Both the position numbers and the translations under genes were made by a program. This document shows, one piece after another, positions 14,497 through 56,666 of a stretch of DNA of 64,000 nucleotides. How positions within the stretch are numbered: the stretch's first letter is position 1; each line of letters begins with the position of its first letter. Under the pieces are notes generated by a model. The model saw nothing but the letters and a program-made list of their open reading frames with translations, had not been told where the DNA came from and made no database searches. The stretch is from an uncultured Poribacteria bacterium (GTDB lineage: Bacteria > Poribacteria > WGA-4E > WGA-3G), in NCBI GenBank assembly GCA_958296135.2, contig CATQHZ020000001.1, forward strand, positions 4,256,001 through 4,320,000, in the 5' to 3' direction.

Positions 14497-15690
14497 CTAA
14501 ATCTTATAGAGAGATAGACTCGCGAGAATGTCGCTGTCCGTAACGACGAGTGCCACAGCCAAAACTGTTATCGGCAACTCCCCGGCAAACCGCGCCAATT
14601 TTTGCTCATCTTTCTGCGTCGTCACGACGCATTCCGCACCCGTCTGTTTCAACTTGCGTCGGATGCGCTGACAGTCCGCTTCTGTGTAAGCGTGATGGTC
14701 TGGGAATGCGAGTAAATCAACGGTTGCCGGCGTATATTGGGTGAGCGTTGTAACGAAAGCGTTCGGGTTACCGATGCCACACACGGCGAGCAGTCGCTTT
14801 CCGCTGAGCCAACTGAGGGATAATTGTTCCGAATCCCTAGCAGCACGCAGGCGATAGAGCTGCATGGGACGGTGAACACTCTCCATAATTGGCGTATTCG
14901 GTGCTAATCTGCCGAGTTTTTCCTTAATGTCAGAAAGGACAGCTTGCCGCTCTTCTTCCGGTAGAAGAGCCCTCCCGGTCTTGACGTTGACGGGTTTCGC
15001 GCCCCTACCGGGGAGAGCGAAATCGGTCCGAGTCAATAAGATGATGTCGGCGCGGTGGAGGGCTGTGAGGGGTTCACGCAGCGTGCCAGCAGGTAAGAGC
15101 TGCCCTGTGCCGAAAGGGCGTGTCGCATCGACGGTGACGATGTCAACATCTCGGTGGAGTTGACGATGTTGGAAGCCATCGTCAAGGAGGAGCACCTCGC
15201 TTTTAAAGCGAGCCATGGCGAGTTGTCCCGCTGCGTAACGATGCCTGCCGACAAGGATAGGAATGCCGGGGAGGAGGCGCGCCATCATCGCTGCCTCATC
15301 GCCGCTCTCCGCGAGGGAGCAGCGGCATCTCTCGCCATCTGAGACAATCGTAACGTTTTTTGCGCGCTTGAAAAGCGCGCCTCCCGGTCGGGAGGAGTGG
15401 CGTTTGTAACCGCGCAGAAGGACAGCGACGCGCACGCCATCTGTTTGGAGCTGCTTTGCAATGGCGATGACTGCCGGTGTTTTGCCTGTGCCGCCAACGA
15501 CGATGTTGCCGACGCTGATAACGGGGCATGGTAAACGGCGCGTCTGAAAAATGCCGCGCGTATAGAGTATGTCTCGCAGCGATACGACTGCGGCGTAGGC
15601 GCGCTTTAAAAGCGCGCCTACTGGCCAGAGAAGTATGCGGAGAAGTCCTGGCCGGTCGCTTGTAATGAGGGGATAGAGCGCGGATTTCAT
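14497..15690 (-). CDS. lpxK: Tetraacyldisaccharide 4'-kinase containing three REP-derived segments
   Basis: VISVGNIVVGGTGKTP, GDE, LDDGFQH, LLPAG.LRE, FPDHH and TQKD motifs. Confidence 0.95.
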   Translation of the reverse strand: MKSALYPLITSDRPGLLRILLWPVGALLKRAYAAVVSLRDILYTRGIFQTRRLPCPVISVGNIVVGGTGKTPAVIAIAKQLQTDGVRVAVLLRGYKRHSSRPGGALFKRAKNVTIVSDGERCRCSLAESGDEAAMMARLLPGIPILVGRHRYAAGQLAMARFKSEVLLLDDGFQHRQLHRDVDIVTVDATRPFGTGQLLPAGTLREPLTALHRADIILLTRTDFALPGRGAKPVNVKTGRALLPEEERQAVLSDIKEKLGRLAPNTPIMESVHRPMQLYRLRAARDSEQLSLSWLSGKRLLAVCGIGNPNAFVTTLTQYTPATVDLLAFPDHHAYTEADCQRIRRKLKQTGAECVVTTQKDEQKLARFAGELPITVLAVALVVTDSDILASLSLYKI

Positions 15691-16823
15691 TTGAGATGTT
15701 CTGTCACCAGTTGCGCGGTGCGTTCGGCCGCGCCGGTTGAACCGAGCTGCGCGTAAACGGCACGCAACTCCTCACGCTGCGCCTCTCGTCTGTGCGGGTG
15801 TTGGAGGAGCTCAAGAGTGTGTTCCGTGATTGCCCCTGGCGTGAGTTCTGTCTGCAGCAATTCGGGCACAATATCTCTCCCGGCGATGAGATTCGGCAAG
15901 CCGCTCCGCTCCAAGGGGCTCAGCGTCTTGATGATGCGCCAATTAAGCGATGAAGTGCAGAAGAGGATTATCATCGGTGTGCCGATGCACGCCGCCTCCA
16001 GCGTCGCTGTGCCGGAGGTGATGAGCATCAAGGTTGCCGCGCGCATCGCCGAATATGTCGCGTCTTCAATAATGTGAATTGGAGGGATGTCTGAAATCCC
16101 ACGGCGACATTCAGCGAGGAAATCTCGCGAAATCCCCGGTGCTAACGGGAGGAACCACTGCGCGTTCGGATAGATACGCGCGATGTTCGCAACCCCTTTT
16201 AGCACCGGCGGCAGGATGTGTCGGATTTCGGAACGACGGCTCCCCGGCATCAACCCGATGACAAGACTGTCCCTGCTTATCCCAAGTTTTTCACGCGCTG
16301 CTTCAGGAGTGAGAGCTGTCCGTGCAAAATCGACGAGTGGGTGCCCCACAAACTCGGCGTTTGCACCGGCGTTTCGGTAAAACTCTGCCTCAAAGGGGAA
16401 GATGGCGGCGATGACGTTCGCCCACTTTGCCAGTCTCTTCGCACGGCCGGCACGCCACGCCCACGCCTTCGGGGGGATGTAGTAGACAACAGGCACTTGG
16501 TGCTGCCACGCAACTTTCGCCAACGGCATGTTAAACTCGGCGAAATCGACGAGCAGCAGCGCATCGGGACGTTGCTGGCGGATGCGCCGTTTTAGATGCC
16601 GCTGCTTCCGCAGGAACATGGGCAGCGCGCCGATGACATTCGCGAAGCCCATAATAGCGGAATCGCCGATGTGAAGGTCCAACGTTACACCTGCCTTTTC
16701 CATCAAATCGCCGCCCATACCGAAGAGCGTCATGTTGGGGCAGAGTGTTTTGAGGTGTTTTGCGACGTACGAAGCGTGCAGGTCTGCCGAGGGTTCCCCC
16801 GCGACAATCATCACGTTTGGCAT
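15687..16823 (-). CDS. lpxB: Lipid-A-disaccharide synthase
   Basis: VAGEPSAD, WAWR, FVGHPL, PGSR.SE and SGTATLE motifs. Confidence 0.96.
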   Translation of the reverse strand: MPNVMIVAGEPSADLHASYVAKHLKTLCPNMTLFGMGGDLMEKAGVTLDLHIGDSAIMGFANVIGALPMFLRKQRHLKRRIRQQRPDALLLVDFAEFNMPLAKVAWQHQVPVVYYIPPKAWAWRAGRAKRLAKWANVIAAIFPFEAEFYRNAGANAEFVGHPLVDFARTALTPEAAREKLGISRDSLVIGLMPGSRRSEIRHILPPVLKGVANIARIYPNAQWFLPLAPGISRDFLAECRRGISDIPPIHIIEDATYSAMRAATLMLITSGTATLEAACIGTPMIILFCTSSLNWRIIKTLSPLERSGLPNLIAGRDIVPELLQTELTPGAITEHTLELLQHPHRREAQREELRAVYAQLGSTGAAERTAQLVTEHLK

Positions 16824-16991
16824 TTTTTGTCTTTCGCAAGGCGTTTGATGGATACCCAACTAGCGGACACCGTTGTCTTACCAGGGCCGTCATCGATGTT
16901 GTCAATAACTACGTTCCTGGCTCCCATCCTTAACACTGTTAACGATGGAAAAACTTGTGATAGAAAGCGATACAAAAAACGGACGATGCGG

Positions 16992-18035: not shown

Positions 18036-18071
18036 ATTTTCACCCTACAGACGATGTGAGGTCCTGTGGTA

Positions 18072-18905: not shown

Positions 18906-18930
18906 AATCGTTGCTCCTTGCGCGTTCAGC

Positions 18931-19593
18931 CTACAACTGCTTCGCGACGATAGCTTTCAAAATCTGCACGACGGCTTCGGCTTCAAAAATGCCGTTGTAG
19001 ACGCGCGAAAACGCCGCGGTGAACGTCGGTTTTTCAGTGTCAATGTCGCCGACGATACCGCGCACAAAAGTCCAACTGCCAGAGACAGCGTAGCAACCAA
19101 AAATTTCTTGCTCCGCATTCGGCGGCTCCGACTCGCCTTCCCAATTCAGTCGTGCGGCGGCGAGCATCTGGCCGTAGAGTTGCACCTGCGGGTCTGGTGC
19201 ATTCACGCCGCGCTTTGCCTCATGCACGATGAAATAAGGCTGGCGAGGCTTCCCGGCGGCAGCGGGGGCGAGGGCCCCATCTGCCGCTCCCTCTAATTGA
19301 AAGGTAGCATAGGCGGCTTTCAAGGGAACGCTTGTCCAGGCCCGAATGTAGGCTTGTTCTGCGAGGACTAACAGCGGATAGATGGCGCGCGCCCAAAGTG
19401 TGCCTTCATTCAAGACGACGAGGTTGAGATGACGTAAGATGGATTTGAGATAGTCAATTTGGGCGACTTCCGCGGAGGTTAGGCCTTCTTGCTGCACGTT
19501 ATCCCAGTTATCAGACGTATCTATCTGGATATGGAGTGCCACAAGTTCCCTGAGCGTCTCTTCAGACAACTCTGAAAAATTGTAGGTTTTCAT
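18931..19593 (-). CDS. PD-(D/E)XK-like hypothetical protein, paralog 1
   Basis: G.ADG...EAKR...QLYGQM...GSW.F pattern resembling HSDR_N-like nuclease folds. Confidence 0.75.
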   Translation of the reverse strand: MKTYNFSELSEETLRELVALHIQIDTSDNWDNVQQEGLTSAEVAQIDYLKSILRHLNLVVLNEGTLWARAIYPLLVLAEQAYIRAWTSVPLKAAYATFQLEGAADGALAPAAAGKPRQPYFIVHEAKRGVNAPDPQVQLYGQMLAAARLNWEGESEPPNAEQEIFGCYAVSGSWTFVRGIVGDIDTEKPTFTAAFSRVYNGIFEAEAVVQILKAIVAKQL

Positions 19594-19725
19594 CGTTCAT
19601 ATTCTCCCCTTTTCAGTGCAGCGTGAGCCCGCGAGGGATCAGGTTTCCCCTCGCGCTACGGACGGGACGGCCTCAAGCACATGCGCCGACTCCATTGAAC
19701 CCGAAGTGCCAGGCCCTCGCACTGT

Positions 19726-20388
19726 CTACAATTGCTTCGCGACGATAGCTTTCAAAATCTGCACGACGGCTTCGGCTTCAAAAATGCCGTTGTAGACGCG
19801 CGAAAACGCCGCGGTGAACGTCGGTTTTTCGGTGTCAATGTCGCCGACGATACCGCGCACAAAAGTCCAACTGCCAGAGACAGCGTAGCAACCAAAAATC
19901 TCTTGCTCCGCATTCGGCGGCTCCGACTCGCCTTCCCAATTCAGTCGTGCGGCGGCGAGCATCTGGCCGTAGAGTTGCACCTGCGGGTCTGGTGCATTCA
20001 CGCCGCGCTTTGCCTCATGCACGATGAAATAAGGCTGGCGAGGCTTCCCGGCGGCAGCGGGGGCGAGGGCCCCATCTGCCGCTCCCTCTAATTGAAAGGT
20101 AGCATAGGCGGCTTTCAAGGGAACACCTGCCCACGCTTGAACGTCGTCTTGTGCCGCAAACACCAGCATCGGATAAATGGCGAGGGCCCAGAGTGTCGCT
20201 TCGTTCATGACGACGAGATCGCGTTCACGCCAGATAGATATGAGGTAGTCAAGGTATCCGAGCTCTGGCGGTGTTAAACCTTCTCCCTGCATCTTCTCCC
20301 ATTCGCCAGAAACGCCTCTCTGTATATCAAGCATCACGAGTTCCCTGAGCGTTTCTTCAGACAACTCTGAAAAACTGTAGGTTTTCAT
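19726..20388 (-). CDS. PD-(D/E)XK-like hypothetical protein, paralog 2
   Basis: C-terminal ~130 aa identical to paralog 1. Confidence 0.75.
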   Translation of the reverse strand: MKTYSFSELSEETLRELVMLDIQRGVSGEWEKMQGEGLTPPELGYLDYLISIWRERDLVVMNEATLWALAIYPMLVFAAQDDVQAWAGVPLKAAYATFQLEGAADGALAPAAAGKPRQPYFIVHEAKRGVNAPDPQVQLYGQMLAAARLNWEGESEPPNAEQEIFGCYAVSGSWTFVRGIVGDIDTEKPTFTAAFSRVYNGIFEAEAVVQILKAIVAKQL

Positions 20389-20573
20389 CGTTCATATCCT
20401 CCCCTTTTCAGGGCAGCGTGAGCCCGCGAGGGACAGGCCCTCGCGCTACGGATGAGGGGGGCTCTAGTGTTCCATCGGGCGAGGGACAGGCCCTCGCACT
20501 ACGGATGAGAGGGGCTCTAGTTTGATGTCGGGCTAAGGACAGCCCCTCGCCGCGCAGCAGGTGCTCGCGCTGT

Positions 20574-21233
20574 CTACAATTGCTTCGCGACGATAGCTTT
20601 CAAAATCTGCACGATGGCTTCGGCTTCAAAAATGCTGTGATATTCGCGCGAACATGCCGCGGTGAACGTCGGTTTCTCGGTGTCAATGTCGCCGACGATA
20701 CCGCGAACGAAATTCCAACTGCCAGAGATAGCGTAGCAGCCAAAAATTTCTTGCTCCGCGGGCGGTTCTGTCTCGTCTTTCCAATTCAACCATGCGGCAG
20801 CGAGCATCTGGCCGTAGAGTTGGACACGCGGATCGGGTGCATTCACGCCGCGCTTTGCCTCATACACAACGAAATAAGGCGGTTGTGCATCCCCTGCGGC
20901 AGCGGGGGCGAGGGCCCCATCTGCGATTCCTTCCAACTGAAAGGTAGCATAGGTGGCTTTCAAGGGAACGCTTGCCCATGCCTGAACGTAGTCTTGTGCC
21001 GCAAGCACCAACATCGGATAAATGGCGAGGGCCCAGAGTGTTGCCTCGTTCATGACTACCAAGTTCCGTTCGCGCCAGATGCCTCTGAGGTAGTTAAGGT
21101 ATCCGAGCTCTGCTGGGGTTAAGTCTTCTCCCTGCAAGTCCTCCCAATTGCCAGACGTATCTATCTGGATATGGAGTGCCACAAGCTCCCTGAGCGTCTC
21201 TTCAGACAACTCTGAAAAACTGTAGGTTTTCAT
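20574..21233 (-). CDS. PD-(D/E)XK-like hypothetical protein, paralog 3
   Basis: Same family and same RBS/upstream sequence as paralogs 1 and 2. Confidence 0.75.
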   Translation of the reverse strand: MKTYSFSELSEETLRELVALHIQIDTSGNWEDLQGEDLTPAELGYLNYLRGIWRERNLVVMNEATLWALAIYPMLVLAAQDYVQAWASVPLKATYATFQLEGIADGALAPAAAGDAQPPYFVVYEAKRGVNAPDPRVQLYGQMLAAAWLNWKDETEPPAEQEIFGCYAISGSWNFVRGIVGDIDTEKPTFTAACSREYHSIFEAEAIVQILKAIVAKQL

Positions 21234-21269
21234 CGTTCATATCCTCCTCTTTTCAGGGCATCGTGAGCC

Positions 21270-21495: not shown

Positions 21496-21518
21496 CCGCG
21501 CCCCGCGCACACCCCGGT

Positions 21519-28060: not shown

Positions 28061-28102
28061 TAGCGTAGGGCGATGCCCTGGGCCACGCCATGGAGTCAAA
28101 AA

Positions 28103-32254: not shown

Positions 32255-32428
32255 CGTAGGGCGAGGGCCGTTACGGTCACGTCTACAGAAAATGTGCGTG
32301 TGTCGCCCCGCGTAAACACGGTCACGTCTACAGAAAAAGTGCGTGTGTCGCCCCGCGTAAACACGCTACCTTACTTTAACTTTGTCATCTCTGCAGCCTC
32401 GCTGCAGAGATGTCCACTGTCCCTCGCC
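32255..32428. mobile_element. REP with nested hairpin insert (2 x 45-bp units)
   Basis: Same element as at 7631. Confidence 0.75.
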
Positions 32429-34633: not shown

Positions 34634-36766
34634 TTAGTTTTTTAGCATCTCCACAATTGCTCGATGCCCCTTGGATTCCGCCAGCATTGCCGCCGTATCG
34701 CCTTGCTGATTTTTCAAGTCGGCATCGGCCTGATGCGCAAGCAGAAGTCGCACGATGTCCGCATATCCGCGCCAAGCGGCATACATTAACGCTGTCTCAC
34801 CCCTGCGGTTGTGCGCATTGACAGCCGCGCCTTTTTCAAGCAGCCGCTTCGTTAATGCAACATCGCCTGTCTTATGGATGATGAAAATGAGCGGAGTATT
34901 GCCGTTGGCATCCGCTACGTTTACCACCGCGCCGTTGTCAATGAGGAACATCGCCACATCGGCATATCCCTTTTCGGCGGCAATGAGTAACGGAGTGCGC
35001 CCCAACGCGTCTTTGTGATTCACCTTCGGACGCGCCGCGCGGGTTGCGTTAACATCGCCACGCCAGACAGCACTGAGAAAATCATCCGGTAATTCGGTGA
35101 GAATGTGTTCCTGATTGGCAGGGAGGTTTTCGTAAACTTCTACAACGCCGCTCGGCCAGCGGATTTCCAACCGAGATGCGCCGGTGTTCTCGCCCAAACC
35201 GAAGTGCAAACGCGCGTCGTGGCTGCTCAGATAACTCGCGCATGGAGTGACATCACGGATGTGCCGCCTCAGCCCGTAGGGCGAGGGCCTGTCCCTCGCC
35301 GTGTCATCCGTTAAAATGACGCGCGCCCCAATCCCATCACGATTGCTGACTGTGCCGACGGTTTTTATCCGCAGCCAATTTTGCTTATTCCCGCTTTCGT
35401 TTCGCAATAAAGTTGCCGGGCCGTTTGACTGCGTGACAAGCATGTCAACATCGCCATCGTTATCGTAATCGCCGAAGCTGCTCCCTCGGCTGACTTGGGC
35501 ACGCTGAAAATAGGGGCCGGCAGTATCAGAAATCTCGCTGAACGTGCCATCGCCGTTATTGCGGAAGAGCTGGTTTGGTTGCGCATACGTGAGGACATCG
35601 TGCGTCTCAGCAATATTGTCAATGATATGCCCATTCGCAATGAAGAGCTCGAACCAGCCATCGTTATCGGCATCAAAAAAACCGGTGCCGAATCCGACAT
35701 AGAGATAACTCTCTTTTCCGAGGCGCGCCTCATAAATCACATCGGTGAAGGTGCCATCGCCGTTGTTACGGTAAAGCGCGTTCGTCTCGTAAGAGAGGTT
35801 CGTAACGAAGATATCCAGCGTGCCATCGCCGTTGTAATCGCCCGCGGCAACGCCCATGCCGGCTTGCGCCACGCCGTTGAAACTATAGGCGCACCCGGCG
35901 AGGAGCGAAAGCTCGCTGAACGTGCCATCGCCGTTGTTAAAGAAAAAGTCGTTGCGGGTGTCGTCGTTGGCGACATAAAGGTCTGGCGTGCCATCGTTAT
36001 TGAAGTCTGCCGAGACGACACCTAACCCCTTCCCGTGAAACATCCCGCCGATGCCGCCCACGCCTGCTTCTTGACTGACATCAGTGAACGTTCCATCGCC
36101 GTTGTTGCGGTAGAGTCTATCCGGCGCGCCTTCAAACAGAGAGGGATGGCAATAAGTGCGCGTCTCGCCTTCACCACACGGACGATAGGGCACATCCAGC
36201 GAATAGTTAAGATAGTTGACGACAAACAGATCGAGGTGCCCATCTCTATCATAATCGAGGAAGCACGCGCTGCTGCTCCAGGCCGCATCGCCGACACCCG
36301 CGTGCGCGGTGACATCGGTAAAAGTGCCATCGCCGTTGTTGCGATAAAGCACATTCGCCCCGAAATTGGTAACGTAGAGCTCGGTATCTCCATCGTTGTC
36401 GTAGTCGGCGCATGCAACGCCTTGGCCATAGTTGCCTCGGTTGCCAACGCCTGCAACGGCGGTGATGTCTGTAAAGGTGCCATCGCCGTTATTCTGATAG
36501 AGCGCAGCGGAAGTGTTGGGACGCATTGCTATATCTGTCCGCCCTGGCCAATAGCCGCTGTTGACGAGGTAAATGTCAAGCGCGCCATCGTTATCAGCGT
36601 CAAAGAAGGCACCGCCGGCACCGAGGGTTTCAGGTAGATGGTAGTCTCCCTCTGCACCGTTGACATGTCGGAAGTGGATGCCAGCCTCTGCCGTAGCGTC
36701 AACGAATTGGACATTCGCAGTTGATAAGCAGGGTATCCCACAACAAAAAAGGAGGATGAGCAGCAT
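34634..36766 (-). CDS. CRTAC1/ASPIC-UnbV (FG-GAP repeat) protein with C-terminal ankyrin repeats
   Basis: DYDNDG repeats, NRDGIGA, LHFGLG and IRWPSG motifs, then G.TPL..AA ankyrin units; start could be 36865. Confidence 0.88.
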   Translation of the reverse strand: MLLILLFCCGIPCLSTANVQFVDATAEAGIHFRHVNGAEGDYHLPETLGAGGAFFDADNDGALDIYLVNSGYWPGRTDIAMRPNTSAALYQNNGDGTFTDITAVAGVGNRGNYGQGVACADYDNDGDTELYVTNFGANVLYRNNGDGTFTDVTAHAGVGDAAWSSSACFLDYDRDGHLDLFVVNYLNYSLDVPYRPCGEGETRTYCHPSLFEGAPDRLYRNNGDGTFTDVSQEAGVGGIGGMFHGKGLGVVSADFNNDGTPDLYVANDDTRNDFFFNNGDGTFSELSLLAGCAYSFNGVAQAGMGVAAGDYNGDGTLDIFVTNLSYETNALYRNNGDGTFTDVIYEARLGKESYLYVGFGTGFFDADNDGWFELFIANGHIIDNIAETHDVLTYAQPNQLFRNNGDGTFSEISDTAGPYFQRAQVSRGSSFGDYDNDGDVDMLVTQSNGPATLLRNESGNKQNWLRIKTVGTVSNRDGIGARVILTDDTARDRPSPYGLRRHIRDVTPCASYLSSHDARLHFGLGENTGASRLEIRWPSGVVEVYENLPANQEHILTELPDDFLSAVWRGDVNATRAARPKVNHKDALGRTPLLIAAEKGYADVAMFLIDNGAVVNVADANGNTPLIFIIHKTGDVALTKRLLEKGAAVNAHNRRGETALMYAAWRGYADIVRLLLAHQADADLKNQQGDTAAMLAESKGHRAIVEMLKN

Positions 36767-36924
36767 TACCGGTAGGCGCGCTTTCGCAGCGCGCTTTGGC
36801 AGCGCGCCCACGCGGTTGGTATGGTTGGTGGCGTGGATAGCGTTTTTCTGCGATGCAAGGTTCATAATCTTCTCTGTGAAATCGCATCGGGTGAATATAG
36901 AAATCCACCCTTACGTTCCTTACG

Positions 36925-40216: not shown

Positions 40217-43200
40217 ATGATGCTCAGCATCAAACCCACGCACAAACCGATAACAACCTATTACGCCGAACTCGGACAGTATACGAGCCTCGGCGCACAA
40301 CACGAAGGAGCCGTCCGCGTCGCCTTCCAGAACTTGCTGCAACACTATTGCGGACAACGCCATCTCGCGCTGATATGCGAGCAGACGCGCACCACCCCTA
40401 ACGGAAACCAGATTCGCATTGATGGCGAAATCGTCACCGACTTTGGCTTAGTCTTCGGACACTGGGAAGCGAAGGACTTGTTCGATGAGCTCCCCGCCGA
40501 AGCGCAACAGAAGTTGACAACCGGCTATCCTGCCAAAAATATCATCTTCCAAACCCCGCACCGTGCGAGACTCTACCAAAACGGTTCGCTCGTGCTGGAC
40601 TTGGACATCACCGAACCGCGTAATCTCGTCCAGCTGCTCGAGAGCTTCTTCGCCTACACCGAAGAAAACCTCGCCGACTGGGATGCAGCCGTGGACACTT
40701 TCCAAGATACCATCCCCGAGCTCGGCGCGAGACTCGAAGCACTCATCCAAACCGAACGCCAAAATACGCCCGACTTCCGCGAGGCGTTCGCGAACTTCCA
40801 TCAGCAGTGCAGAAACGCAATCAACCCCAACCTCGCTGAAACCGAAGTCGAACGGATGCTCGCGCAACACCTCTTGACAGAACGCATCTTCCGCACCGTT
40901 TTTGATAACCCGGATTTCACGAATCGGAATATCATCGCGCAAGAAATAGAAAAGGTGATTCGCGTGCTGACGCGGCACGCCTTGAATCGGAATCAGTTCC
41001 TCAACAGTCTTGATGGATTCTACGCCGCTGTGGAAAACACGGCACGGACGCTGACAGACTATTCGCAGAAGCAGGCATTTCTCAATACCGTCTATCAACG
41101 CTTTTTTCAAGGCTTCTCTGTCAAAACCGCCGATACACACGGCATCGTCTACACGCCGCAACCCATCGTCGATTTCATGGTGAACAGCGTGCAGCATCTC
41201 TTGAAAACCCACTTCGGCAAATCGCTGGCAGATACAGGTGTCCATATCATCGATCCGTTTGTCGGCACCGGCAACTTCATCGTCCGCCTGATGCAAGAAA
41301 TCCCCGGCATCGCGCTAGACAAAAAGTATCGCGGCGAACTCCACTGCAACGAGGTGATGCTGCTGCCCTATTACATCGCCACGATGAACATCGAACACGC
41401 CTATTTCGAGAAAATGGGACGGTATGAGCCGTTCAAGCATATCTGCTTCGTAGATACGTTCGATACCTTCGGGTTGATGGACACGCCGCATCAGACAGGG
41501 CAGTTTGCCTTTCTCACGCAGGAAAACACGCTGCGCGTCAAAGAGCAGAAAGATACCCCGATGTTCGTCGTCATCGGCAATCCGCCTTACAATGCGAGCC
41601 AAACCAACGAGAACGATAACAACAAGAACCGGCCCCACGAAGCAGTCGATGCGCGCGTCCGCGCTACCTATGCCGCTGCCTCCACGGCGCAACTGAAAAA
41701 CAAACTCTACGATCCTTACGTCAAATCCCTCCGCTGGGCATCGGATAAAATCGGGGAAGAAGGCATCATCGCGTTTATCACGAATAACAGTTTTCTGGAT
41801 GCGGCGATGTTCGATGGGATGCGGCAGTGTCTCGCCGAGGAATTTGACCGGCTTCATATCGTCGATCTGGGTGGGAACATTCGCAAGGGACAAAAGGGAG
41901 ATTCCAACGTGTTCGGCATTCAAGTCGGCGTGAGCATCAATTTCTTTGTGAAAACGAAGCAGCAACGCGCGGGCATCGCGCGCATCCGCTATACCGATGA
42001 AGCCGCCGCTTTGTCGAAGGCACGCACCTTCCAGTTTCTCGCAGCCCACGAACATATCGGGAATGTGACGTGGCGCGAATTGCAGCCAAATGCGCGCCAA
42101 CTGTGGCTCACGGAGGGGCTCGAACCCGACTTTGACACGTTCCTCCCGATGGGCACCAAGAAAGCAAAGGCGGCAAAAGGTGCTGTTGAAGGCACGCTCT
42201 TTAAAACCTATAGCCTCGGCGTGGTGACGGCTCGCGACGCATGGGCTTACAACTTCAAGCCGGCCGCGCTGCAAGAAAATATGACGCGGATGATGGCCTT
42301 CTTCAACGCCGAATGCGGCCGGTGGGAAGGGCGCGCCGACCGGGATGTCCACGTGAAGGATTTTGTGGATACCGATAAAACGAAGATAAAGTGGACCCGG
42401 AGTCTGCTGTCAAAGTTGCGTCAGGGCAAATTGGCAACGTTTTCGCCGGAAAAGATACGCCATTCTCTTTTCCGGCCGTTTACCAAAACGCACCTCTACT
42501 TGGATCGGATGATGAACGAGTGCGTCTATGTGATGCCCGCCATTTTCCCGACACCGGAAACCGAACAGGAAAATCGGGTTATCTGTGTCAATCTGACGAA
42601 AGAAAAACCTTTCACCTGTTTGATGGTAGACTGCATTCCCCAACTTACGATGACAGGGGGGTTTGGTTCACCAACACAATCTTTCCCTTTCTATATTTAC
42701 GATGAGGACGGCACCAACCGCCGAGAAAACATCACCGACTGGGCTCTCGCACAGTTCCGCGCACACTACGCCGACGAGACTATCACCAAGTGGGACATTT
42801 TCCACTACAATTACGCCGTTTTGCATCATCCTGACTATCGCGAACGGTATCAGGTGAACTTGAAGCACGATTTGCCGCATCTCCCGTTCGCCCCAGAGTT
42901 CTGGGGGTTCGTGAACATCGGGCGCGCTTTGGCAGACTTGCATGTCAATTATGAAGCACTTGACGTGCTGCCAAACGTCGTTGAGACACCGGGCGTGCCG
43001 CTGAATTGGCGCGTGGCACAGATGAAGTTGTCAAAAGACAAGACTGAGGTGCGATACAACGAATCGTTGACGCTAGTGGATATTCCGCCGGCCGTGTTTG
43101 ATTATCAGTTGGGGCGGCGTTCGGCATTGGAGTGGGTCCTCGATCAGTATCGGGTGAAGTCGGATCCGAATGGTAGTGGTATTGTTGCGGATCCGAATCG

Positions 43201-43306
43201 TGTTGAGGATGCGCAATATATCGTTCGGTTGCTTGGGCAGGTGATGCGTGTGAGTGTGGATACGGTGCGGTTGGTTGGGGAATTGCCTTCCCTCCTTGTC
43301 CCGTAG
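40217..43306 (+). CDS. Single-chain restriction-modification enzyme: N6-adenine MTase plus Type ISP-like C-terminal specificity region
   Basis: GIVYTP, DPFVGTG, GNPPY, RPF and W..DQY motifs; N-terminal DG...EAK. Confidence 0.88.
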   Translation: MMLSIKPTHKPITTYYAELGQYTSLGAQHEGAVRVAFQNLLQHYCGQRHLALICEQTRTTPNGNQIRIDGEIVTDFGLVFGHWEAKDLFDELPAEAQQKLTTGYPAKNIIFQTPHRARLYQNGSLVLDLDITEPRNLVQLLESFFAYTEENLADWDAAVDTFQDTIPELGARLEALIQTERQNTPDFREAFANFHQQCRNAINPNLAETEVERMLAQHLLTERIFRTVFDNPDFTNRNIIAQEIEKVIRVLTRHALNRNQFLNSLDGFYAAVENTARTLTDYSQKQAFLNTVYQRFFQGFSVKTADTHGIVYTPQPIVDFMVNSVQHLLKTHFGKSLADTGVHIIDPFVGTGNFIVRLMQEIPGIALDKKYRGELHCNEVMLLPYYIATMNIEHAYFEKMGRYEPFKHICFVDTFDTFGLMDTPHQTGQFAFLTQENTLRVKEQKDTPMFVVIGNPPYNASQTNENDNNKNRPHEAVDARVRATYAAASTAQLKNKLYDPYVKSLRWASDKIGEEGIIAFITNNSFLDAAMFDGMRQCLAEEFDRLHIVDLGGNIRKGQKGDSNVFGIQVGVSINFFVKTKQQRAGIARIRYTDEAAALSKARTFQFLAAHEHIGNVTWRELQPNARQLWLTEGLEPDFDTFLPMGTKKAKAAKGAVEGTLFKTYSLGVVTARDAWAYNFKPAALQENMTRMMAFFNAECGRWEGRADRDVHVKDFVDTDKTKIKWTRSLLSKLRQGKLATFSPEKIRHSLFRPFTKTHLYLDRMMNECVYVMPAIFPTPETEQENRVICVNLTKEKPFTCLMVDCIPQLTMTGGFGSPTQSFPFYIYDEDGTNRRENITDWALAQFRAHYADETITKWDIFHYNYAVLHHPDYRERYQVNLKHDLPHLPFAPEFWGFVNIGRALADLHVNYEALDVLPNVVETPGVPLNWRVAQMKLSKDKTEVRYNESLTLVDIPPAVFDYQLGRRSALEWVLDQYRVKSDPNGSGIVADPNRVEDAQYIVRLLGQVMRVSVDTVRLVGELPSLLVP

Positions 43307-44163
43307 GGCGAGGTCCTGTGCCTCGCCATGCATCGGTCTATTGAACGTCACTTCTTCACCGTAGGGCGAGGGCCCGGCGATCGCGAATCGCCGAGGGTTC
43401 CCCTCGCCATGTATCGGTCTATTGAACGTCACTTCTTCACCGTAGGGCGCGGGCCCGGCGATCGCGAATCGCCGAGGGTTCCCCTCGCCAGGCATCGGGC
43501 CATCAAGAAGCGTTCGCGGGGGACAAGAACACCCCACTTCACCGTAGGGCGAGGTCCTGTGCCTCGCCATGCATCGATCTATCGAACGTCACTTCTTCAC
43601 CGTAGGGCGAGGTCCTGTGCCTCGCCATGTATCGATCTATCGAACGTCCTTCTTCACCGTAGGGCGAGGGCCCGGCGAGTGAACGATCGCGGGGGACAGG
43701 CCCCCGCGCTACGGGACGAGAACGTTCTATGTCTCTCCAACGATCGCGGGGGACAGTGGACATCTCTGCAGCGAGGCGGCAGAGATGACAACGTTTCGGC
43801 GTGACGGCCCCCGCGCTACGGGCACCGGGGGGTTGTCTGATACCGTAGGGCGAGGTCCTGTCCCTCGCCAGGCATCGGGCCATCGAGAAGCGTTCGCGGG
43901 GGACAGGCCCCCGCGCTACGGGACGAGAACGTTCTATGTCTCTCCAACGATCGCGGGGGACAGTGGACATCTCTGCAGCGAGGCGGCAAAGATGACAACG
44001 TTTCGGCGTGACGGCCCCCGCGCTACGGGCACCGGGGGGTTGTCTGATACCGTAGGGCGAGGTCCTGTCCCTCGCCAGGCATCGGGCCATCGAGAAGCGT
44101 TCGCGGCGGACAGGCCACTACGGGACGAAGGACGATCGCGGGGGACAGGCCCCCGCGCTACGG
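43302..44163. repeat. Large mosaic REP cluster (BIME-like) including a 207-bp tandem duplication with two nested-insert REPs
   Basis: More than 10 CGTAG(G/C)GCG...CCTCGCC / CCCCGCGCTACG units. Confidence 0.9.
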
Positions 44164-44227
44164 GTTAAGAACGTTACCGTATCACCGGAAGAAAGATTAA
44201 CCCGGTTCCGCCGCCTACGAAAAAAAT

Positions 44228-45159: not shown

Positions 45160-46275
45160 ATGGAAGCACTCGTGCTGCACGGCATCGGCGATGTGCGGCA
45201 CCAGCGGATACCGAAGCCGTCCCTCACGGAAGGCACAGTGCGCGTCCGCATCGGGTTTTGCGGTGTGTGCGGCTCCGATATGCCGCGCATCTTCACCAAA
45301 GGCACTTACACCTTTCCGACGGTGTGCGGGCACGAATTCGCGGGCATCGTGGAGGCGTGCGGCGCAGGCGTTGACACTTTCTCGCCCGGCGATGCTGTCG
45401 TCGTCTTTCCGCTGCTCTGGTGTGGGATGTGCCCGGCGTGTGAGCAGGGAAACTATGTGCAGTGCCACGACTACGACTACCTGGGTTCGCGGCGGGATGG
45501 CGCGTTTGCCGAATTTGTCGTCGCGCCGAAAGAAAACCTTATCCGCGTACCGGAAAAGGTCGCGTTGGAAGAAGCAGCGATGACGGAACCCGCGGCTGTC
45601 GCCTTACACGCGCTCCGCCGAGTCGGAACATCGCTCGTCGGTAAAACGGTTGCGATTTTCGGCGCGGGCCCGATCGGACTCATGGCAGCACACTGGGCAC
45701 GGATAATGGGTGCAGCAGACGTGCTTCTCTTTGACATTGTCGCGGCGAAACTAGCACTCGCGAAACGTCTCGGATTTCAGCATGTCTTTCGTAGCGCAGC
45801 CGTAGAAGCGAACGCTAACGAAAACCGGCACGGCTCCGTAGCACGAGGGCCTGTCCCTCGCGGCTGTGCAAAAGACGCGGTAGAAATCGTCAGTGAGCAC
45901 ACGGATGGGCAAGGCGCGCATGTCGCGATTGAAGCCGCCGGCGTGCCGCAAACCTATCGCGATGCCCTCGGCAGTGTGCGTCACGGTGGCAGCGTCGTCT
46001 TGCTCGGCAACCCGATTGCAGACGTAACCTTGCCAGCACCGCTCATCTCGCAATTGATGCGGCGCGAGGTGACGCTCCTCGGCACCTGGAATTCCGATTA
46101 CAGCACCGCCGGTAACGATGATGATTGGCGCGCTGTGCTACAAGCGATGGCATCGGGACAGCTGTCCCTCGCGCCATTGATTACGCACAAAGTGCCGTTG
46201 GCAGATGGCCCAGACATGTTGCACAAAATGAAGGATAAACAGGAATTTTACGCGAAGGTGCTTATGCACCCGTAA
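45160..46275 (+). CDS. Zn-dependent polyol(-phosphate) dehydrogenase (GatD-like) with in-frame REP
   Basis: GVCGSD, GHEF, YLGSRRDG and GAGPIG motifs. Confidence 0.9.
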   Translation: MEALVLHGIGDVRHQRIPKPSLTEGTVRVRIGFCGVCGSDMPRIFTKGTYTFPTVCGHEFAGIVEACGAGVDTFSPGDAVVVFPLLWCGMCPACEQGNYVQCHDYDYLGSRRDGAFAEFVVAPKENLIRVPEKVALEEAAMTEPAAVALHALRRVGTSLVGKTVAIFGAGPIGLMAAHWARIMGAADVLLFDIVAAKLALAKRLGFQHVFRSAAVEANANENRHGSVARGPVPRGCAKDAVEIVSEHTDGQGAHVAIEAAGVPQTYRDALGSVRHGGSVVLLGNPIADVTLPAPLISQLMRREVTLLGTWNSDYSTAGNDDDWRAVLQAMASGQLSLAPLITHKVPLADGPDMLHKMKDKQEFYAKVLMHP

Positions 46276-47969: not shown

Positions 47970-47998
47970 TTGCTGTTCTCGCCGGAGAAATATCAGAC

Positions 47999-48071: not shown

Positions 48072-48110
48072 CCTCTCACTGGGTATGATGACGAAACATA
48101 GGAAGAATTG

Positions 48111-50078: not shown

Positions 50079-50084
50079 AGGCTG

Positions 50085-50184
50085 GCGCGGGACAGTGGAC
50101 ATCTCTGCAGCAAGGCTGCAGAGATGATAGCGTTAAAGTAAGGTAGTTTGCTGTAGGCGTGTCCGTGACGGCCCGCGCGCTACG
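50085..50184. mobile_element. REP with nested hairpin insert between secD and secF
   Basis: GGGACAG|TGGACATCTCTGCAGC...CGTGACG|GCCC. Confidence 0.75.
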
Positions 50185-50217
50185 AGCCAAAGGCCGCACG
50201 CGGAAAGGATAAACATT

Positions 50218-51132: not shown

Positions 51133-51135
51133 GTT

Positions 51136-51738: not shown

Positions 51739-51742
51739 TCCC

Positions 51743-52396
51743 GTGAAAACCTTGGTAATCAGTTCCTGCACGAGCAAGAAACTGAATCACAACGCTCCCG
51801 CCGCCGAGATGTATACCGGCCAACAACATACGCTGTTGATGGAAGGGGTAAACCAAGTCCGAACGCGCTACGGGCAATCAGCCCTCGATCTGGCTATCAT
51901 TTCGGCGGAGTATGGCCTGCTCAACGAACGCGACGTAATCTCGCCTTACAACGTCACCTTTCAAGGGATGAAGAAGGCGGAAATTTTGGAGAAGAGTCGT
52001 CGTCTGCAACTTCATGAACGGGTGACGGAGTTAATCGCGCGGTATGATACGGTTTTCTTTCTGTTAGGGAAAGAATATGTTCAGGCACTTCAACTCCCCT
52101 TGGGGGAATCGGGACCGGGAGAACCCGCCTACCGCCGGGGAGGAGTCCCGGAGTCTGTTACCCAGATTTTCCTGCTCGGCGCGAGTTATCGCAGGCTCAT
52201 TCCTGATGCGCCGAATGTCCATTTCGTTCCTGCAGGGAGTGCGTTGTCGCAGACACTTGGAGTCATGGGAGTTGCGTTGAAAGGGTTCGTGTTCAAAAAG
52301 ATGTGCGAGGCTGTCTGTCGTGAAGGGCTCAATCTCTTTGAAGACATCAGACGAAATCCACAGATGGTCCGCGACATTGCCATGGAGAGCCAATAA
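51743..52396 (+). CDS. DUF6884-like protein, paralog 2 (in-frame REP)
   Basis: SCTSKK...PAAEMYTG, ISAEYGL, PYNVTF and LG.EY motifs. Confidence 0.7.
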   Translation: MKTLVISSCTSKKLNHNAPAAEMYTGQQHTLLMEGVNQVRTRYGQSALDLAIISAEYGLLNERDVISPYNVTFQGMKKAEILEKSRRLQLHERVTELIARYDTVFFLLGKEYVQALQLPLGESGPGEPAYRRGGVPESVTQIFLLGASYRRLIPDAPNVHFVPAGSALSQTLGVMGVALKGFVFKKMCEAVCREGLNLFEDIRRNPQMVRDIAMESQ

Positions 52397-52533
52397 TACT
52401 AAATGAATCAAAGTAGTTTGGGCTCGCCTGAGCTGAAACAGGACAAGAGCCAGCGAACTCATCTCCACCTAACGGGATGCTGTTACGTCTCGGCCCGGCG
52501 AGCCCTACGGTAAATTAACGGTGTAATTCAAAG

Positions 52534-53913
52534 ATGCATCTTCCAACACCTATTCCCAACGATACGCCACGGCGCATTATCGGGCGCTCGGCACCGATGC
52601 AGGAGGTCCTTCGCCTTGTGCGGCAGGTTGCGCCGACAAACGCCACGGTGCTCATCACCGGTGAGACAGGGGTGGGCAAAGATGTCATCGCGCAAGCTAT
52701 CCATGAGCGCAGCCCGCGGAAAACCGGACCGTTCAAGGCTGTCAACTGCGGTGTGTTTCACGGCGAGCTGTTGCAAAGCGAGCTTTTCGGACATGAGAAA
52801 GGCGCGTTTACCGATGCCGCCACCCTCCGCCGCGGCGTGTTTGAACAAGCACACACCGGCACGCTGTTCCTCGATGAAGTCGGCGAGATGTCGCCTAAAA
52901 CGCAAGTGGAGTTCCTCCGCGTGCTAGAGACGCGCGAATTTACGCGCCTCGGCGGCGAAAAAAACATTCACGTGGATGTCCGAATTATCGCTGCTACCAA
53001 CGTTGAACTCGGCACATCCGTGCAGCGGAAAACCTTCCGGCAAGACCTTTACTACCGTCTCAACCTCTTTCGCATCCATATCCCACCGTTGCGTGAGCGT
53101 CGCGAGGATATCCCGCTCTTCGTCCACGCGTTCATCGCTGAATTGAGTGCCGAACACGGGAAACCGGTTACCGGTATTACGCCGGCGACACTCGCCTATC
53201 TTGAACAGGCGGACTGGCCAGGCAACGTGCGGGAGCTCCGAAATGCCGTTGAAAGTGCTATCATTGTCGCCGCATCGGACGAATTGGAACGCCGCGATTT
53301 TCCGCTTGATTCGGTGCCTGCGCCGGTCGCTGTGCTGCCCACATTACACACCAATGCCCTGGCACCTGTTGCTGCCGAGCCGCTCGAAAACGTGGCGATT
53401 TACAAGACAATTCTCGGACTGATTTTCGCTGCGCTGCGCTTGCTTGGAGACGATGCTTCCAGCCTCATGCCGGGGAGGAATGAACTGCAGATAGCGATTC
53501 CTGATGAGGATACCAGTTGGCTGCAAATCGCTGATGATGTGGATGCATCGGTTATCCTGCAGAAGGCGTTAGCGGTGCTTTCAACCGTCGCCAAACAAAT
53601 GGAGGAAACGCCTTTGCCGCTGCCTGTACCGGTTGCGGAAGTTCAAGACCGGGAGGGCGCGCCTATTGGCATTCGGGACCGGGAGAACCCGCCGACAGGG
53701 GTTCTTGATGTGGCAATCGTTCCAACGGCGTTTGACGAAGATACCATCGGCAAAGTCGGTATGACGATGGCAGAGATTGAGAAGGCTGCTATCCAAAAGA
53801 CGCTTGTGGAGGCAGACGGAAATAAGACGGAGGCGGCGAAGATTCTGGACATCGGCGTGCGAACGTTGCATCGGAAATTGGAGGCGTATCGGCAGGATGA
53901 GCAGGATGGCTAG
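52534..53913 (+). CDS. Sigma54-interacting-type AAA+ transcriptional regulator with Fis-type HTH and no N-terminal sensor domain
   Basis: GETGVGK, GAFTDA, LFLDE, DLYYRL and WPGNVREL motifs; C-terminal HTH. Confidence 0.92.
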   Translation: MHLPTPIPNDTPRRIIGRSAPMQEVLRLVRQVAPTNATVLITGETGVGKDVIAQAIHERSPRKTGPFKAVNCGVFHGELLQSELFGHEKGAFTDAATLRRGVFEQAHTGTLFLDEVGEMSPKTQVEFLRVLETREFTRLGGEKNIHVDVRIIAATNVELGTSVQRKTFRQDLYYRLNLFRIHIPPLRERREDIPLFVHAFIAELSAEHGKPVTGITPATLAYLEQADWPGNVRELRNAVESAIIVAASDELERRDFPLDSVPAPVAVLPTLHTNALAPVAAEPLENVAIYKTILGLIFAALRLLGDDASSLMPGRNELQIAIPDEDTSWLQIADDVDASVILQKALAVLSTVAKQMEETPLPLPVPVAEVQDREGAPIGIRDRENPPTGVLDVAIVPTAFDEDTIGKVGMTMAEIEKAAIQKTLVEADGNKTEAAKILDIGVRTLHRKLEAYRQDEQDG

Positions 53914-53951
53914 CGCGCGAGGGACAGGCAACACCTCCTATCCCCGGCGGG

Positions 53952-56666
53952 TTATTCCTCTACCGTGCTGTAGTAAATCGCATTGAAGAGCAGCTTAAAT
54001 GTGCCGTGCGATTGCCCCCGATGCTGCGGTTTGAATCCAAAGAGAACCACACGTCCTGCGCCGAGGGAAGTTTCTAATAACGCGCCTTTCTGGCGGATGC
54101 GCTTTTCTCCCTCAAGCCACCCGCTCATCAACGGATTAAACGCCGGATACGTCGCGATAACTGCACCGCCGCGCGTGGCATCAAAAACAGGCCCCGATTT
54201 GAAAAAGAGTGCCATCTCCGGTGCTAACCCATACCCAATCGGGTGCTTCGTCTCTATCCGTGCGCGCAACAACGAACCGGGACAGAAAAATACCGCGTCA
54301 GTCGCTTGATTTGTTTTTTTTACCACATTGACGATGCCTCGCTCACTGAGCCCAAAGTATGCCAACGGCAGTTCTGTCGCGCGGTTGAGGCAGATGAGAC
54401 TGCCTCCCTCTTCCACGAACGTGTGCAAATTCGCCAGTCCCTCCGTGCCAATCCCCCCGACATATTCCGGCGGCAACGCGCCTATCGGATGCCCGTTGAG
54501 AATAGCAGCAGCTCCCATGTCCGGCAAAATAATTGCATCGTATCGCGATGCCAACTCGCCCGCGCGGATTTCCGCATTCGTGAGGCTATAATAGACGCAT
54601 TCGTGCGTATCCAACACCCACCGCGTCCATCCTTCGTCCATGTTTGCTGTCCACGGTTTGTAGAGCCCAACGCGGGGAGGTGTCAGTTGTGAGAACGTCC
54701 GGGTGAAAGTTTCGTCGTCAAGCGCGGCATTTGCGTAAATCTGGATGCCAAATTCCTCCGCCAACGCCTGTATCTCTTCAATTTCTAGCGATGCCTGTCC
54801 TTGCTCCGTAGTGCGAGGGCCTGTCCCTCGCAAACGTGCCGCATCAGAAACCGTTCGAGGCGTTGCTATCCTTACCAAAATCGAGCCACGCGCAAACTCT
54901 TTCCCTTGCACCTCAAGTTCACGTCTTGCCCAATACATTTGATATCGCGGGGCACCGTCCGCCAATTTCGCGTTAAACAGGCGATTGAGGACAATAGCCT
55001 CCACGTTCGATCGGTTTTCAAACAGATACCCGGTTGGCTCCGGCACGCGGTGCAACTTTCCCTGCACCGTTGGAAGTGTCTCAACCCGCGTCACATCCGC
55101 CTCAAACGGATGCACCACCGTCACCGTGCGGACACCCATTTGTAACGGCAGCGTCCATCCGGCGATGTCGTAAGGACGCTCGGGCGGCGATTGCGGCGAA
55201 GGCCGGCGTTCCGGATACTGCTGCACCTCCAATAAATCCTTCGCGTGCGCGCGAAAGGGTTGCGACATCAAAACGACGTAAGTTCCTAGCGGATATTCCA
55301 CGCCATCCGCCGTAAACGGCGCGTTCGCCTGATGGATTTCAACACCGCCGCGCTGGAGGATGTCCAACATCTTGCGCGCGGTGTGCCAGTCGCGTTGCTG
55401 CATGGGGATGAGGAAGGCGCGCGGCGGTTCATTTTTGCCCTTCTCTATCGCTTGCAGCCCCATCTGGTAAAAGTTCCTCTTCAGCGTTACCCGATGCTGC
55501 GCGGCAAATGTGAGAATAGAACGCGCCGCTGCCAATTCATAGTCAACGATGTCTCGCAGCCGCCACCATCCCCCCGGCCACGGTTCAGGGAAATTGGTTC
55601 GGAGGGCGTATTTATCCAAGCCGCGCCGATACCCTTTGAGCGTTCCGTGCGGTTGGAAAATCGGGGTGGCAATTTTGACGCGCGCCGCCTCCGTCAAAAT
55701 CCCCACCATGTTATGCCGATACGGCACGGTGCGAAAGCCGCCGTGCCACCACGTATCGTAGACTGCACTTGAAAGCACGCCGGTGAAACCTTGCGAAGTG
55801 AAATCAAAGGCGAGTTGCGCGCCGATGAGCGATAACGTCCGTTGTAACAGCGGCGGGATATTCGGATTCACCGGCTCAAAATAGGGCGGAATCACGAACC
55901 GCGGTCCGCGATAACTCATCTCATGCACATCGTAGACGACTTCCGGAAACCATTCCTCATAAAGCACGCGCGTGAGCAGCTGCGTCTCAACCTGCGTCAA
56001 CATGAACCAATCGCGGTTGTTATCGTGTCCCGTGTATTTCTGATACAGCCACGGCAGTTCTGCGCCTTCATACGGCGTGCCAACTGTGCGCTGATACCAC
56101 TCCACGACAATGTTCAACCCATCAGGGTTTGCCGAAGGAATGAGCAGCACGATGACGTTCTCGAGAATCGCCTGCATTTCGGGAGTCTCCGCCATGGCGA
56201 ATTGATAGGCGAGCTCCATCGACATCTGCGATGAGGCAATCTCGGTGGAATGCAAATTGCAGTTGACCAGGGCGACAGTCTTGCCTTCCTCACAGAAGGT
56301 ATCTAACGTATCACGTCTGTCTGCATCGGGATAAGCGAGTTGCCGCTGGATGGCCTTGTAGCGCGCCAGATTCGCCAAATTCTCCGGCGCAGAGATAAGC
56401 AGCATCACAAAATCGTCGCCTTCTGTCGTCTTACCGAGGACTTCCAGTTGCACCCGGTCTGACGTGTCCGCGACGTGCCGTAGGTAGTTAGAAACGGCTG
56501 TCCATCCGGCGACTTTGTAATCCGCGCCGACTTGAAATCCGAGTGCTTCTTCGGGGGGCATCGGCTGCGCAGCGAGGGGCGAGATGGGTATCCAAAAAGC
56601 GAGCAGTAGCAAGGATATCCAATTGTAGTGAACGCTATCAAACCTTTTCATCAGCGATTTCTCCAT
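53952..56666 (-). CDS. Secreted M14 family zinc carboxypeptidase-like protein
   Basis: HSTE, NPDG, DNNRD, DVHEM and PYD.AGWTLP motifs; start approximate. Confidence 0.88.
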   Translation of the reverse strand: MEKSLMKRFDSVHYNWISLLLLAFWIPISPLAAQPMPPEEALGFQVGADYKVAGWTAVSNYLRHVADTSDRVQLEVLGKTTEGDDFVMLLISAPENLANLARYKAIQRQLAYPDADRRDTLDTFCEEGKTVALVNCNLHSTEIASSQMSMELAYQFAMAETPEMQAILENVIVLLIPSANPDGLNIVVEWYQRTVGTPYEGAELPWLYQKYTGHDNNRDWFMLTQVETQLLTRVLYEEWFPEVVYDVHEMSYRGPRFVIPPYFEPVNPNIPPLLQRTLSLIGAQLAFDFTSQGFTGVLSSAVYDTWWHGGFRTVPYRHNMVGILTEAARVKIATPIFQPHGTLKGYRRGLDKYALRTNFPEPWPGGWWRLRDIVDYELAAARSILTFAAQHRVTLKRNFYQMGLQAIEKGKNEPPRAFLIPMQQRDWHTARKMLDILQRGGVEIHQANAPFTADGVEYPLGTYVVLMSQPFRAHAKDLLEVQQYPERRPSPQSPPERPYDIAGWTLPLQMGVRTVTVVHPFEADVTRVETLPTVQGKLHRVPEPTGYLFENRSNVEAIVLNRLFNAKLADGAPRYQMYWARRELEVQGKEFARGSILVRIATPRTVSDAARLRGTGPRTTEQGQASLEIEEIQALAEEFGIQIYANAALDDETFTRTFSQLTPPRVGLYKPWTANMDEGWTRWVLDTHECVYYSLTNAEIRAGELASRYDAIILPDMGAAAILNGHPIGALPPEYVGGIGTEGLANLHTFVEEGGSLICLNRATELPLAYFGLSERGIVNVVKKTNQATDAVFFCPGSLLRARIETKHPIGYGLAPEMALFFKSGPVFDATRGGAVIATYPAFNPLMSGWLEGEKRIRQKGALLETSLGAGRVVLFGFKPQHRGQSHGTFKLLFNAIYYSTVEE

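Follow-up and report, generated by a model that had tools for sequence, protein, structure and literature searches.

In-frame GTAG REP insertions in protein-coding genes of a Poribacteria genome: load, persistence and turnover

REP-derived inserts in six genes of the window

Repetitive extragenic palindromic (REP) elements of the GTAG type were detected inside protein-coding genes in a 64,000-nt window of the 5.01-Mb contig C1 of genome G000, whose host is a sponge-symbiont-type bacterium of Ca. Poribacteria; coordinates are those of the window unless prefixed C1. A scan with position-weight models of three REP families (A, 24 nt; B, 25 nt; C, 27 nt; threshold 18 bits) revealed 8 intragenic copies in 6 genes (Table 1), which make up 7 sites because the two copies in the sigma54-type regulator form one tandem site. 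The consensus units of 24, 25 and 27 nt all begin with GTAG and all fold as a hairpin, and that of family C has GTAG and CTAC as its two ends (the 'double-foot' GTAG...CTAC type). Codon alignments showed that all 8 copies are in frame and absent from orthologs of other genera, and that the inserts, which exceed the 24–27-nt REP core in length, are true insertions of whole codons. An initial annotation of the window had reported at least eight insertions in six genes from three families; its coordinates and peptides (ARDRPSPYG, VARGPVPR, SGPGEPAY, an RDREN dimer and LRGTGPRTT) match the sequence, Pfam supports all six gene names, and 53643-53667 is the exact reverse complement of an intergenic segment, as it had stated.

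The two inserts of LpxK were compared with 29 orthologs, including one from G002, which with G001 belongs to the same genus as G000 (G004, G009 and G012 represent other genera). The first insert is missing in 29/29 of them, and one ortholog (L018) carries an unrelated 14-aa insert at the same position. Alignment to PDB 4ehw shows a gap opposite this site, and the insert is modelled as coil with a predicted local distance difference test score (pLDDT) below 50 at residues 105-109. The second insert, of ~19-25 codons, lies in a loop that is short in other genera and holds a longer B array in G002; it is modelled as a low-confidence coil (pLDDT ~51 at residues 221-240) running into a lengthened helix. 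Additionally, lpxK genes of genus g5 (L016, L018, L019, L020, L022, L024) and L012 have in-frame inserts of ~25-45 aa in a third LpxK loop, made of short heptamer-like repeats in g5, and G004 has a B-like REP there. Judging from these sequences, repeat-derived loops may be family-wide.

The remaining sites differ in how widely they are shared. The CRTAC1 REP has 0 mismatches to a family subtype and is missing in the G009, G012 and G002 orthologs, the last of which also lacks 4 host codons at the empty site. The nearest named homologs of the dehydrogenase are from Ca. Poribacteria (68-73% identity); the segment that holds its insert is 49 aa long here vs 26 aa in 106/120 homologs, and VARGPVPR recurs in the closest homolog cluster (P0002) and in G001. 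A fourth REP family was considered for the 5' part of this insert and rejected, having 3 matches only. Both family B sites downstream have expanded in frame in G002, to a 45-codon array in DUF6884 and to five copies in the sigma54-type regulator. The latter site is also REP-filled in G001, its linker is unrelated in G004, G009 and G012, and the REPs replace an already variable stretch with a net change of +15 nt vs G009. The M14 site retains a degenerate in-register copy in G002 and is empty in G001, G004, G009 and G012. Four sites (dehydrogenase, DUF6884, sigma54 and M14) are spanned, with 0 differences, by contigs from two runs of one sample, which are not independent since this is probably the source sample; the other two runs show indels of 1-2 bases here and there, and in one contig such an indel falls within the second sigma54 REP.

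Table 1. REP copies, host genes and related features of the window
Feature	Coordinates	Strand	Details and basis
Intergenic family B REP	9002..9026	+	9001-9025 = exact reverse complement of 53643-53667
REP-foot TAG as stop of the gene ending at 8862	8859-8862		window scan
lpxK (tetraacyldisaccharide 4'-kinase), host of two REP-derived inserts	14497..15690	-	PF02606, E 1.5e-86; 29 orthologs aligned
lpxK second insert, inverted family B dimer	14961..15008	.	intact copy 14961-14985 plus degenerate partner, GTAG 15008-15005 on minus strand
lpxK first insert, 10 codons, PGGALFKRAK	15358..15387	-	family C hairpin (copy 15358-15384) joined to half (tail) of a B unit
CRTAC1-like FG-GAP / ASPIC-UnbV / ankyrin gene, host	34634..36865	-	Pfam
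Family A REP, antisense reading ARDRPSPY, in UnbV_ASPIC domain; 10-codon insert	35276..35299	+	codon alignment
REP-foot TAG as stop of the type ISP gene	43303-43306		window scan
Zn-dependent polyol dehydrogenase, host	45160..46275	+	Pfam; homologs named galactitol-1-phosphate 5-dehydrogenase, Ca. Poribacteria
Family A REP, VARGPVPR, within net insert of 21-23 codons	45838..45861	+	ortholog and homolog alignment
DUF6884 paralog 2, host	51743..52396	+	PF21818, E 2.9e-16
Family B REP, SGPGEPAY, in 13-codon insert	52108..52132	-	ortholog codon alignment
Sigma54-type AAA+/HTH regulator, host	52534..53913	+	Pfam
Tandem family B pair, QDREGAP / RDRENPP, between AAA+ lid and HTH	53642..53696	-	copies 53642-53666 and 53672-53696
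M14 carboxypeptidase-like gene, host	53952..56651	-	PF00246
Family A REP, antisense reading RGTGPRTT, in 21-codon insert	54808..54831	+	ortholog codon alignment

Several other repeats were observed in the window. A 211-bp tandem duplication (99%) at 1706-2127 encloses a family B REP, and three tandem paralogs of ~220 aa, 67-99% alike, lie at 18931-21233 with family A REP arrays between them. A gene at 2325-2996 contains a 21-bp (heptad) tandem repeat and is coiled-coil-like.

Genome-wide load, reading frame and decay

Depth of infiltration was assessed across C1, where raw matches to A, B and C at 18 bits number 1505, 692 and 1348, respectively. The reversed genome gives 5, 0 and 12 and the shuffled genome 1, 0 and 4, so chance is excluded as their source. 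We counted 2,832 REP copies at this threshold (A 1,468, B 692, C 672), a minimum, since the scan overlooks A copies with loop cassettes. Such copies, whose loop has been split to take in longer hairpin cassettes, were seen in the window at 7631-7861, 12645-12769, 32255-32428, 43321-44175 and 50079-50198, with an array resembling bacterial interspersed mosaic elements (BIMEs) at 43.3-44.2 kb. By position, 2,166 copies are intergenic, 285 fall at gene ends or edges, and 381 are internal to 242/3,943 genes, 'internal' meaning at least 40 well-scoring codons on both flanks. The internal copies form 292 clusters, 234 of them a single REP, and contribute ~3,650 REP-core residues to the proteome; among intergenic clusters, 376/1,203 hold at least two copies. 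The other contigs of G000, C2-C4, have a GC content of 37%, 67% and 60% vs 54% for C1 and are probably bin contamination or unrelated replicons.

The reading frame was examined independently of gene calls by aligning 1,193 proteins of G009, encoded in 1.6 of its 4.83 Mb, to C1; this genome contains neither exact A, B or C matches nor a PF01797 match. Homologous alignment brackets 128 REP clusters; the frame is kept without a stop in 119 of these, 8 prove to be false joins and 1 is probably a frameshift, and in the ortholog subset 84/85 bracketed clusters are in frame and open, the lone exception being a 1,144-nt false join. The median net gain over G009 is 30 nt, with length gained at 72/84 sites. 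Among nine candidate REP-caused frameshifts, eight join separate genes over more than 1 kb; the one that looks real, C1:2822677-2822827, sits in a paralog of a restriction-modification gene. Cases with a stop inside turned out to be alignment overruns at gene ends or joins of separate genes. REPs occur at 71/935 ortholog loci (7.6%), and altogether ~6-8% of the genes in the genome carry an in-frame REP, essential ones included.

Names were assigned to carriers among 48 scanned outgroup orthologs, which include pheT (3 REPs), aspS, fmt, folC, dapF, murC, tsaB, uppP, uvrC and queG. Each is single-copy, with one strong match in the genome, and these are not pseudogenes. The same genes bear on the idea that post-transcriptional processing or DNA excision takes the inserts out, or that the carriers are pseudogenes or assembly artefacts. 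GC-rich hairpins would be candidate processing sites, and the 4 host codons missing from G002's empty CRTAC1 site could be an imprecise excision scar. The frame is nonetheless kept in 119/120 genuine cases, which removal would not require, the carriers are single-copy essential genes, the inserts are common to independently assembled species and contigs bridge four sites, and we therefore regard this explanation as very improbable.

Intragenic REPs use five reading frames, and the TAG frame of A and B is empty inside genes. The initial annotation had read this as consistent avoidance of the TAG frame; the emptiness is real and it is no targeting property, since a REP TAG serves as the stop codon of 85/3,435 well-scored genes and avoidance reduces to survivorship because only intact open reading frames (ORFs) were inspected. 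In the window, REPs also lie over the 5' ends of the longest ORFs at 28065, 36772, 44291, 46296, 56752 and 62812; most of them probably lie upstream of the real start codons, where annotation would mistake them for N-terminal peptides. Of the inserts of at least 5 aa on the G000 side relative to G009, 78/256 (~30%) are REP-associated, and the total indel load is not unusual, as REP-free G009 has 269 such inserts of its own.

Several measures suggest that coding copies are what remains after heavy loss. REP clusters occur at 70 per Mb in coding DNA vs 1,460 outside, a ~21-fold depletion. Intragenic copies score below intergenic ones (B, p 3.5e-6; C, p 2.8e-10; A, p 0.07), and their hairpins fold more weakly in all three families (p<0.001). 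Persistence was followed in 429 ortholog pairs between G000 and G002 (covering 0.8 of 5.66 Mb, at 87% identity and a 4-fold distance of 0.46), where 22 of 49 sites are shared and a REP was scored in G000 alone at 20 and in G002 alone at 7; of these 27, 8 retain a degenerate in-register copy in the other species. Same-family in-register copies differ by a mean of 3.6 mismatches vs a neutral expectation of ~4.8, a comparison in which ascertainment favours low counts. The ratio of nonsynonymous to synonymous change (pN/pS) against consensus is 0.78 (A) and 0.81 (B) inside genes and 0.94 and 1.0 in intergenic controls. Intragenic REPs thus decay almost neutrally. A test of whether REPs landed at already variable sites, based on anchor span (median 13 vs 5 aa), was biased by the REP's own width and was not used.

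Domestication of the inserted peptides or of their mRNA hairpins, as linkers, translational pause sites or determinants of mRNA stability, would account for the long persistence, the lowered pN/pS and the strong frame bias to Val-start and Pro-Thr readings. It sits poorly with a synonymous excess that is slight and not significant (combined p 0.10), with the weaker hairpins inside genes, with the use of five frames, with sites lost or replaced in the sister species, and with an outgroup that has as many inserts of at least 5 aa without REPs; we consider it unlikely. The initial annotation had pictured REPs seeding peptides across the proteome. The insertions do extend to 242 genes, but seeding implies function, and the 21-fold coding depletion, near-neutral decay and weakened hairpins fit tolerated survivors better.

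Candidate mobilising enzymes and turnover of sites

Families A and B are almost confined to the genus. Among 61 genomes, exact pattern A was found only in its three genomes (633, 720 and 3,712 copies) and exact pattern B reached 329, 103 and 1,645 copies there and at most 5 elsewhere; pattern C is present in 47/61. A mobilising enzyme had been predicted outside the window, and two Y1 HUH genes indeed lie there. One (L001, C1:3734400-3734870) is flanked by B arrays; its product scores 127.6 bits against NF047646 (REP-associated tyrosine transposase, RAYT), vs a cut-off of 80, and shows DHVH and a Tyr ahead of an NP motif. The other (L002, C1:4791068-4791604) is flanked by A arrays, has a DHFH motif and presumably resembles subclass 2.4/group 4; its relatives in the genome contigs gave only uninformative local matches of 28-51%. 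Neither gene has an internal REP. At C1:3058988-3059152 lies a truncated RAYT remnant of 55 aa, 56% identical to the family B enzyme, with one C REP just upstream; it may be the leftover of a family C RAYT. The expectation of a Y1 transposase gene flanked by its own REP family is borne out for B and A; for C there is only this remnant with its single neighbouring copy.

Turnover of sites was evident both between species and among paralogs. The type ISP restriction-modification gene of the window (40217-43306) has an empty loop where its relatives at C1:1118156, 1486982, 2822677, 3177602 and 4412232 carry one to five B REPs in two frames; its G002 ortholog holds an A REP there, and one C1 relative is frameshifted. 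One of two 98%-identical paralogs (C1:1047714-1047771 vs ~701859) has an extra B dimer, 66 bp long and in frame; an 8-bp host segment is directly repeated on its two sides, ending at the GT of GTAG. Between genes, a family B REP occurs within another hairpin repeat with a ~33-bp target duplication (C1:2576979 and 853737 vs 268585, 3888545 and 4477911), and these paralogous sites carry 0, 1 or 2 units. Duplications of 8, ~17 and ~33 bp were seen at only a few young B insertions (3 empty/filled pairs). We rejected target-site duplication as a general feature, as flanking repeats are not enriched around single intragenic REPs (43 of A, 26 of B and 14 of C; also 129 vs shuffled pairs), and no excess of inverted flank duplication was found at the 129 single intragenic REPs vs shuffled pairs. 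Intergenic copies show a small flank-repeat excess (B, 6/51 at ≥11 nt; 4% vs 0.4% at ≥9 nt), due in part to degenerate neighbours.

One alternative is that the slots are under active renewal, with RAYT and recombination re-templating or swapping REPs to give contingency-like peptide variation in place of decay. Two in-register family swaps, in each of which one species has a decayed C where the other has a fresh B starting at the same GTAG, point this way, as do four sites shared by G000 and G002 that hold different families, the B/C chimera of the first LpxK insert, the differing arrays in one loop of the restriction-modification paralogs, the 66-bp dimer, and one site with identical consensus copies in both species despite the 4-fold distance of 0.46. 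Additionally, G002 has ~5 times more exact A and B copies, yet intragenic sites in 25 vs 35 (G000) of the 429 genes, as if slots were limiting. The cases are few, however; the shared copies have mostly degenerated in both species, intragenic copies look older than intergenic ones, and no variant allele of four sites was found in one sample's contigs, which drop rare variants. Active renewal therefore appears doubtful to us, less so than domestication.

We also put forward, as a tentative idea that is probably too strong, that permissive loop slots are finite and are repeatedly refilled, swapped at GTAG and expanded in frame, that REPs arrive by a route duplicating a variable target stretch ending at GT, and that RAYT-driven REP traffic is an ongoing source of protein sequence. 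If so, the genus would be a natural experiment for REP movement in vivo and for the fixation of new loop sequence.

Interpretation and relation to known systems

We consider it likely (probability roughly 0.8) that these are ordinary RAYT-associated GTAG REPs that have expanded to thousands of copies, and that the coding survivors keep the frame, lie in loops or linkers, persist, are near-neutral and are most likely translated. A REP, often with flank or as a dimer, would be copied to new sites. The process would most likely start with cleavage and strand transfer by the Y1/HUH RAYT on single-stranded DNA and be finished by host repair or recombination; this route is inferred: the present data show the pairing of each RAYT with its family, and the chemistry is known from in vitro work on other RAYTs. 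Most insertions into coding sequence would be purged; the survivors keep the frame, avoid the TAG frame and occupy surface loops or linkers, as ortholog alignments show, with loops modelled for two proteins. Fixed copies would then persist across species splits and decay near the neutral rate, weakly held back, while tandem arrays would expand or contract by multiples of 3. The same slot may sometimes be refilled by another family through recombination at the shared GTAG start, as the two in-register swaps suggest. The intact single-copy essential genes indicate that the inserts are most likely translated, as loops of 8-60 residues without selected function.

Several observations weigh against this reading. 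At 12/84 sites there is no net gain over G009, so some sites are replacements, and disrupting insertions that have since been deleted are invisible to frame counts. Frame use among the open frames is uneven (A frame +0 57 vs +1 6, p 4e-14; B frame -2 7, p 2e-6); stop codons in the flanks were rejected as the source of this bias, and the phase of host GT/AC or GTAG/CTAC is compatible with the plus orientation (p 0.10) and incompatible with the minus one (p 2e-16). The best model for the family A enzyme, NF047646, gives 57.4 bits, below the cut-off of 80, with PF01797 passing at 30 vs 23 bits. A third intact RAYT for family C was not found with PF01797 or by tblastn with both RAYTs, and G001 has 720 A copies and no PF01797 match (86% complete). 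The gene counts come from our own dicodon model, whose calls agree with 111/119 ortholog-confirmed REP clusters, and the dehydrogenase model, which places the insert in a disordered stretch, is poor (mean pLDDT 58).

Expanded REPs of this kind have practical consequences, since the inserts make unrelated proteins seem to share motifs and lead to wrong annotated gene starts. Related genomes range from REP-free to thousands of copies, which makes gain, decay, swap and tandem expansion datable, and the near-identical empty/filled pairs give junctions for testing models of REP movement.

The copies resemble the REP, BIME and REPIN (REP doublet) systems with RAYTs, or 'REPtrons', in having a Y1 HUH gene amid cognate GTAG REP arrays, hundreds to thousands of copies and genus-restricted families, as far as the sections consulted of two studies describe them (PMC8266576, PMC6006769). 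They differ in that most intragenic units are single REPs, unlike REPIN dimers, and that the family C enzyme is only a remnant. Other RAYTs have been shown to cleave cognate single-stranded REP at a CT dinucleotide and to carry out strand transfer in vitro, in an account whose consulted sections call the mechanism of REP dissemination unresolved (PMC8266576). Quentin et al. (2018; PMC6006769), in the part considered here, describe REP insertions that keep the frame in tnpA-REP genes of subclass 2.4 and propose that loops or linkers are tolerant; unlike those genes, both RAYTs here are free of internal REPs. Rickettsia palindromic elements (RPEs) likewise are palindromic repeats fused in frame into unrelated, functional-looking genes, and RPE-1, as described in the part consulted, comprises ~150 bp, 44 copies and one conserved peptide (PMC10969869). 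The present elements have cores of 24-27 nt, a median net gain of 30 nt, five frames and a cognate Y1 transposase in the genome. Nor do they resemble transposable elements of the miniature inverted-repeat kind (MITEs), as the 129 single intragenic REPs show no excess of flanking direct or inverted repeats. They are intragenic GTAG REPs, and neither RPE-1 nor MITE.

The closest precedent is the survey of Di Nocera, De Gregorio and Rocco (2013; PMC3733652), the consulted part of which describes REPs wholly within ORFs in several species, GTAG REPs being most numerous in Opitutus terrae. By our own count in part 1 of 3 of its table, O. terrae has 70 in-frame GTAG REP entries in 62 ORFs, from three families (GTAG-17/18/19). 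By the same definition, the REPs here lie wholly inside ORFs of more than 120 aa, keep the frame and are missing from shorter homologs. Both sets comprise 20-27-nt GTAG hairpins in many unrelated genes, as singles and dimers and in several frames, and in both, as far as that part goes, REP feet supply TAG stops. Carriers shared in kind include LpxK, several ASPIC/UnbV proteins, excinuclease subunits and a sigma54 regulator, and the suggestion in the initial annotation of an undescribed system is thereby overturned, in-frame GTAG REPs having been catalogued in 2013 with LpxK and ASPIC/UnbV included. Our literature search, thin on subscription journals, found nothing on REPs inside Poribacteria genes. 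The present case differs from O. terrae in host phylum, in the sequence of its REP families and in load (292 clusters in 242 genes vs 70 entries in 62 ORFs, with differing methods), and, relative to the consulted part of the survey, in that insertion status, persistence and decay were tested against orthologs. The phenomenon is known in kind and unusual in load, and what is added here is that load, persistence across species and slots refilled by other families; with 242 genes against 62 ORFs in the most heavily loaded genome of that survey, as counted from that part of the table, it is among the heavier repeat-derived peptide loads found in a bacterial proteome.

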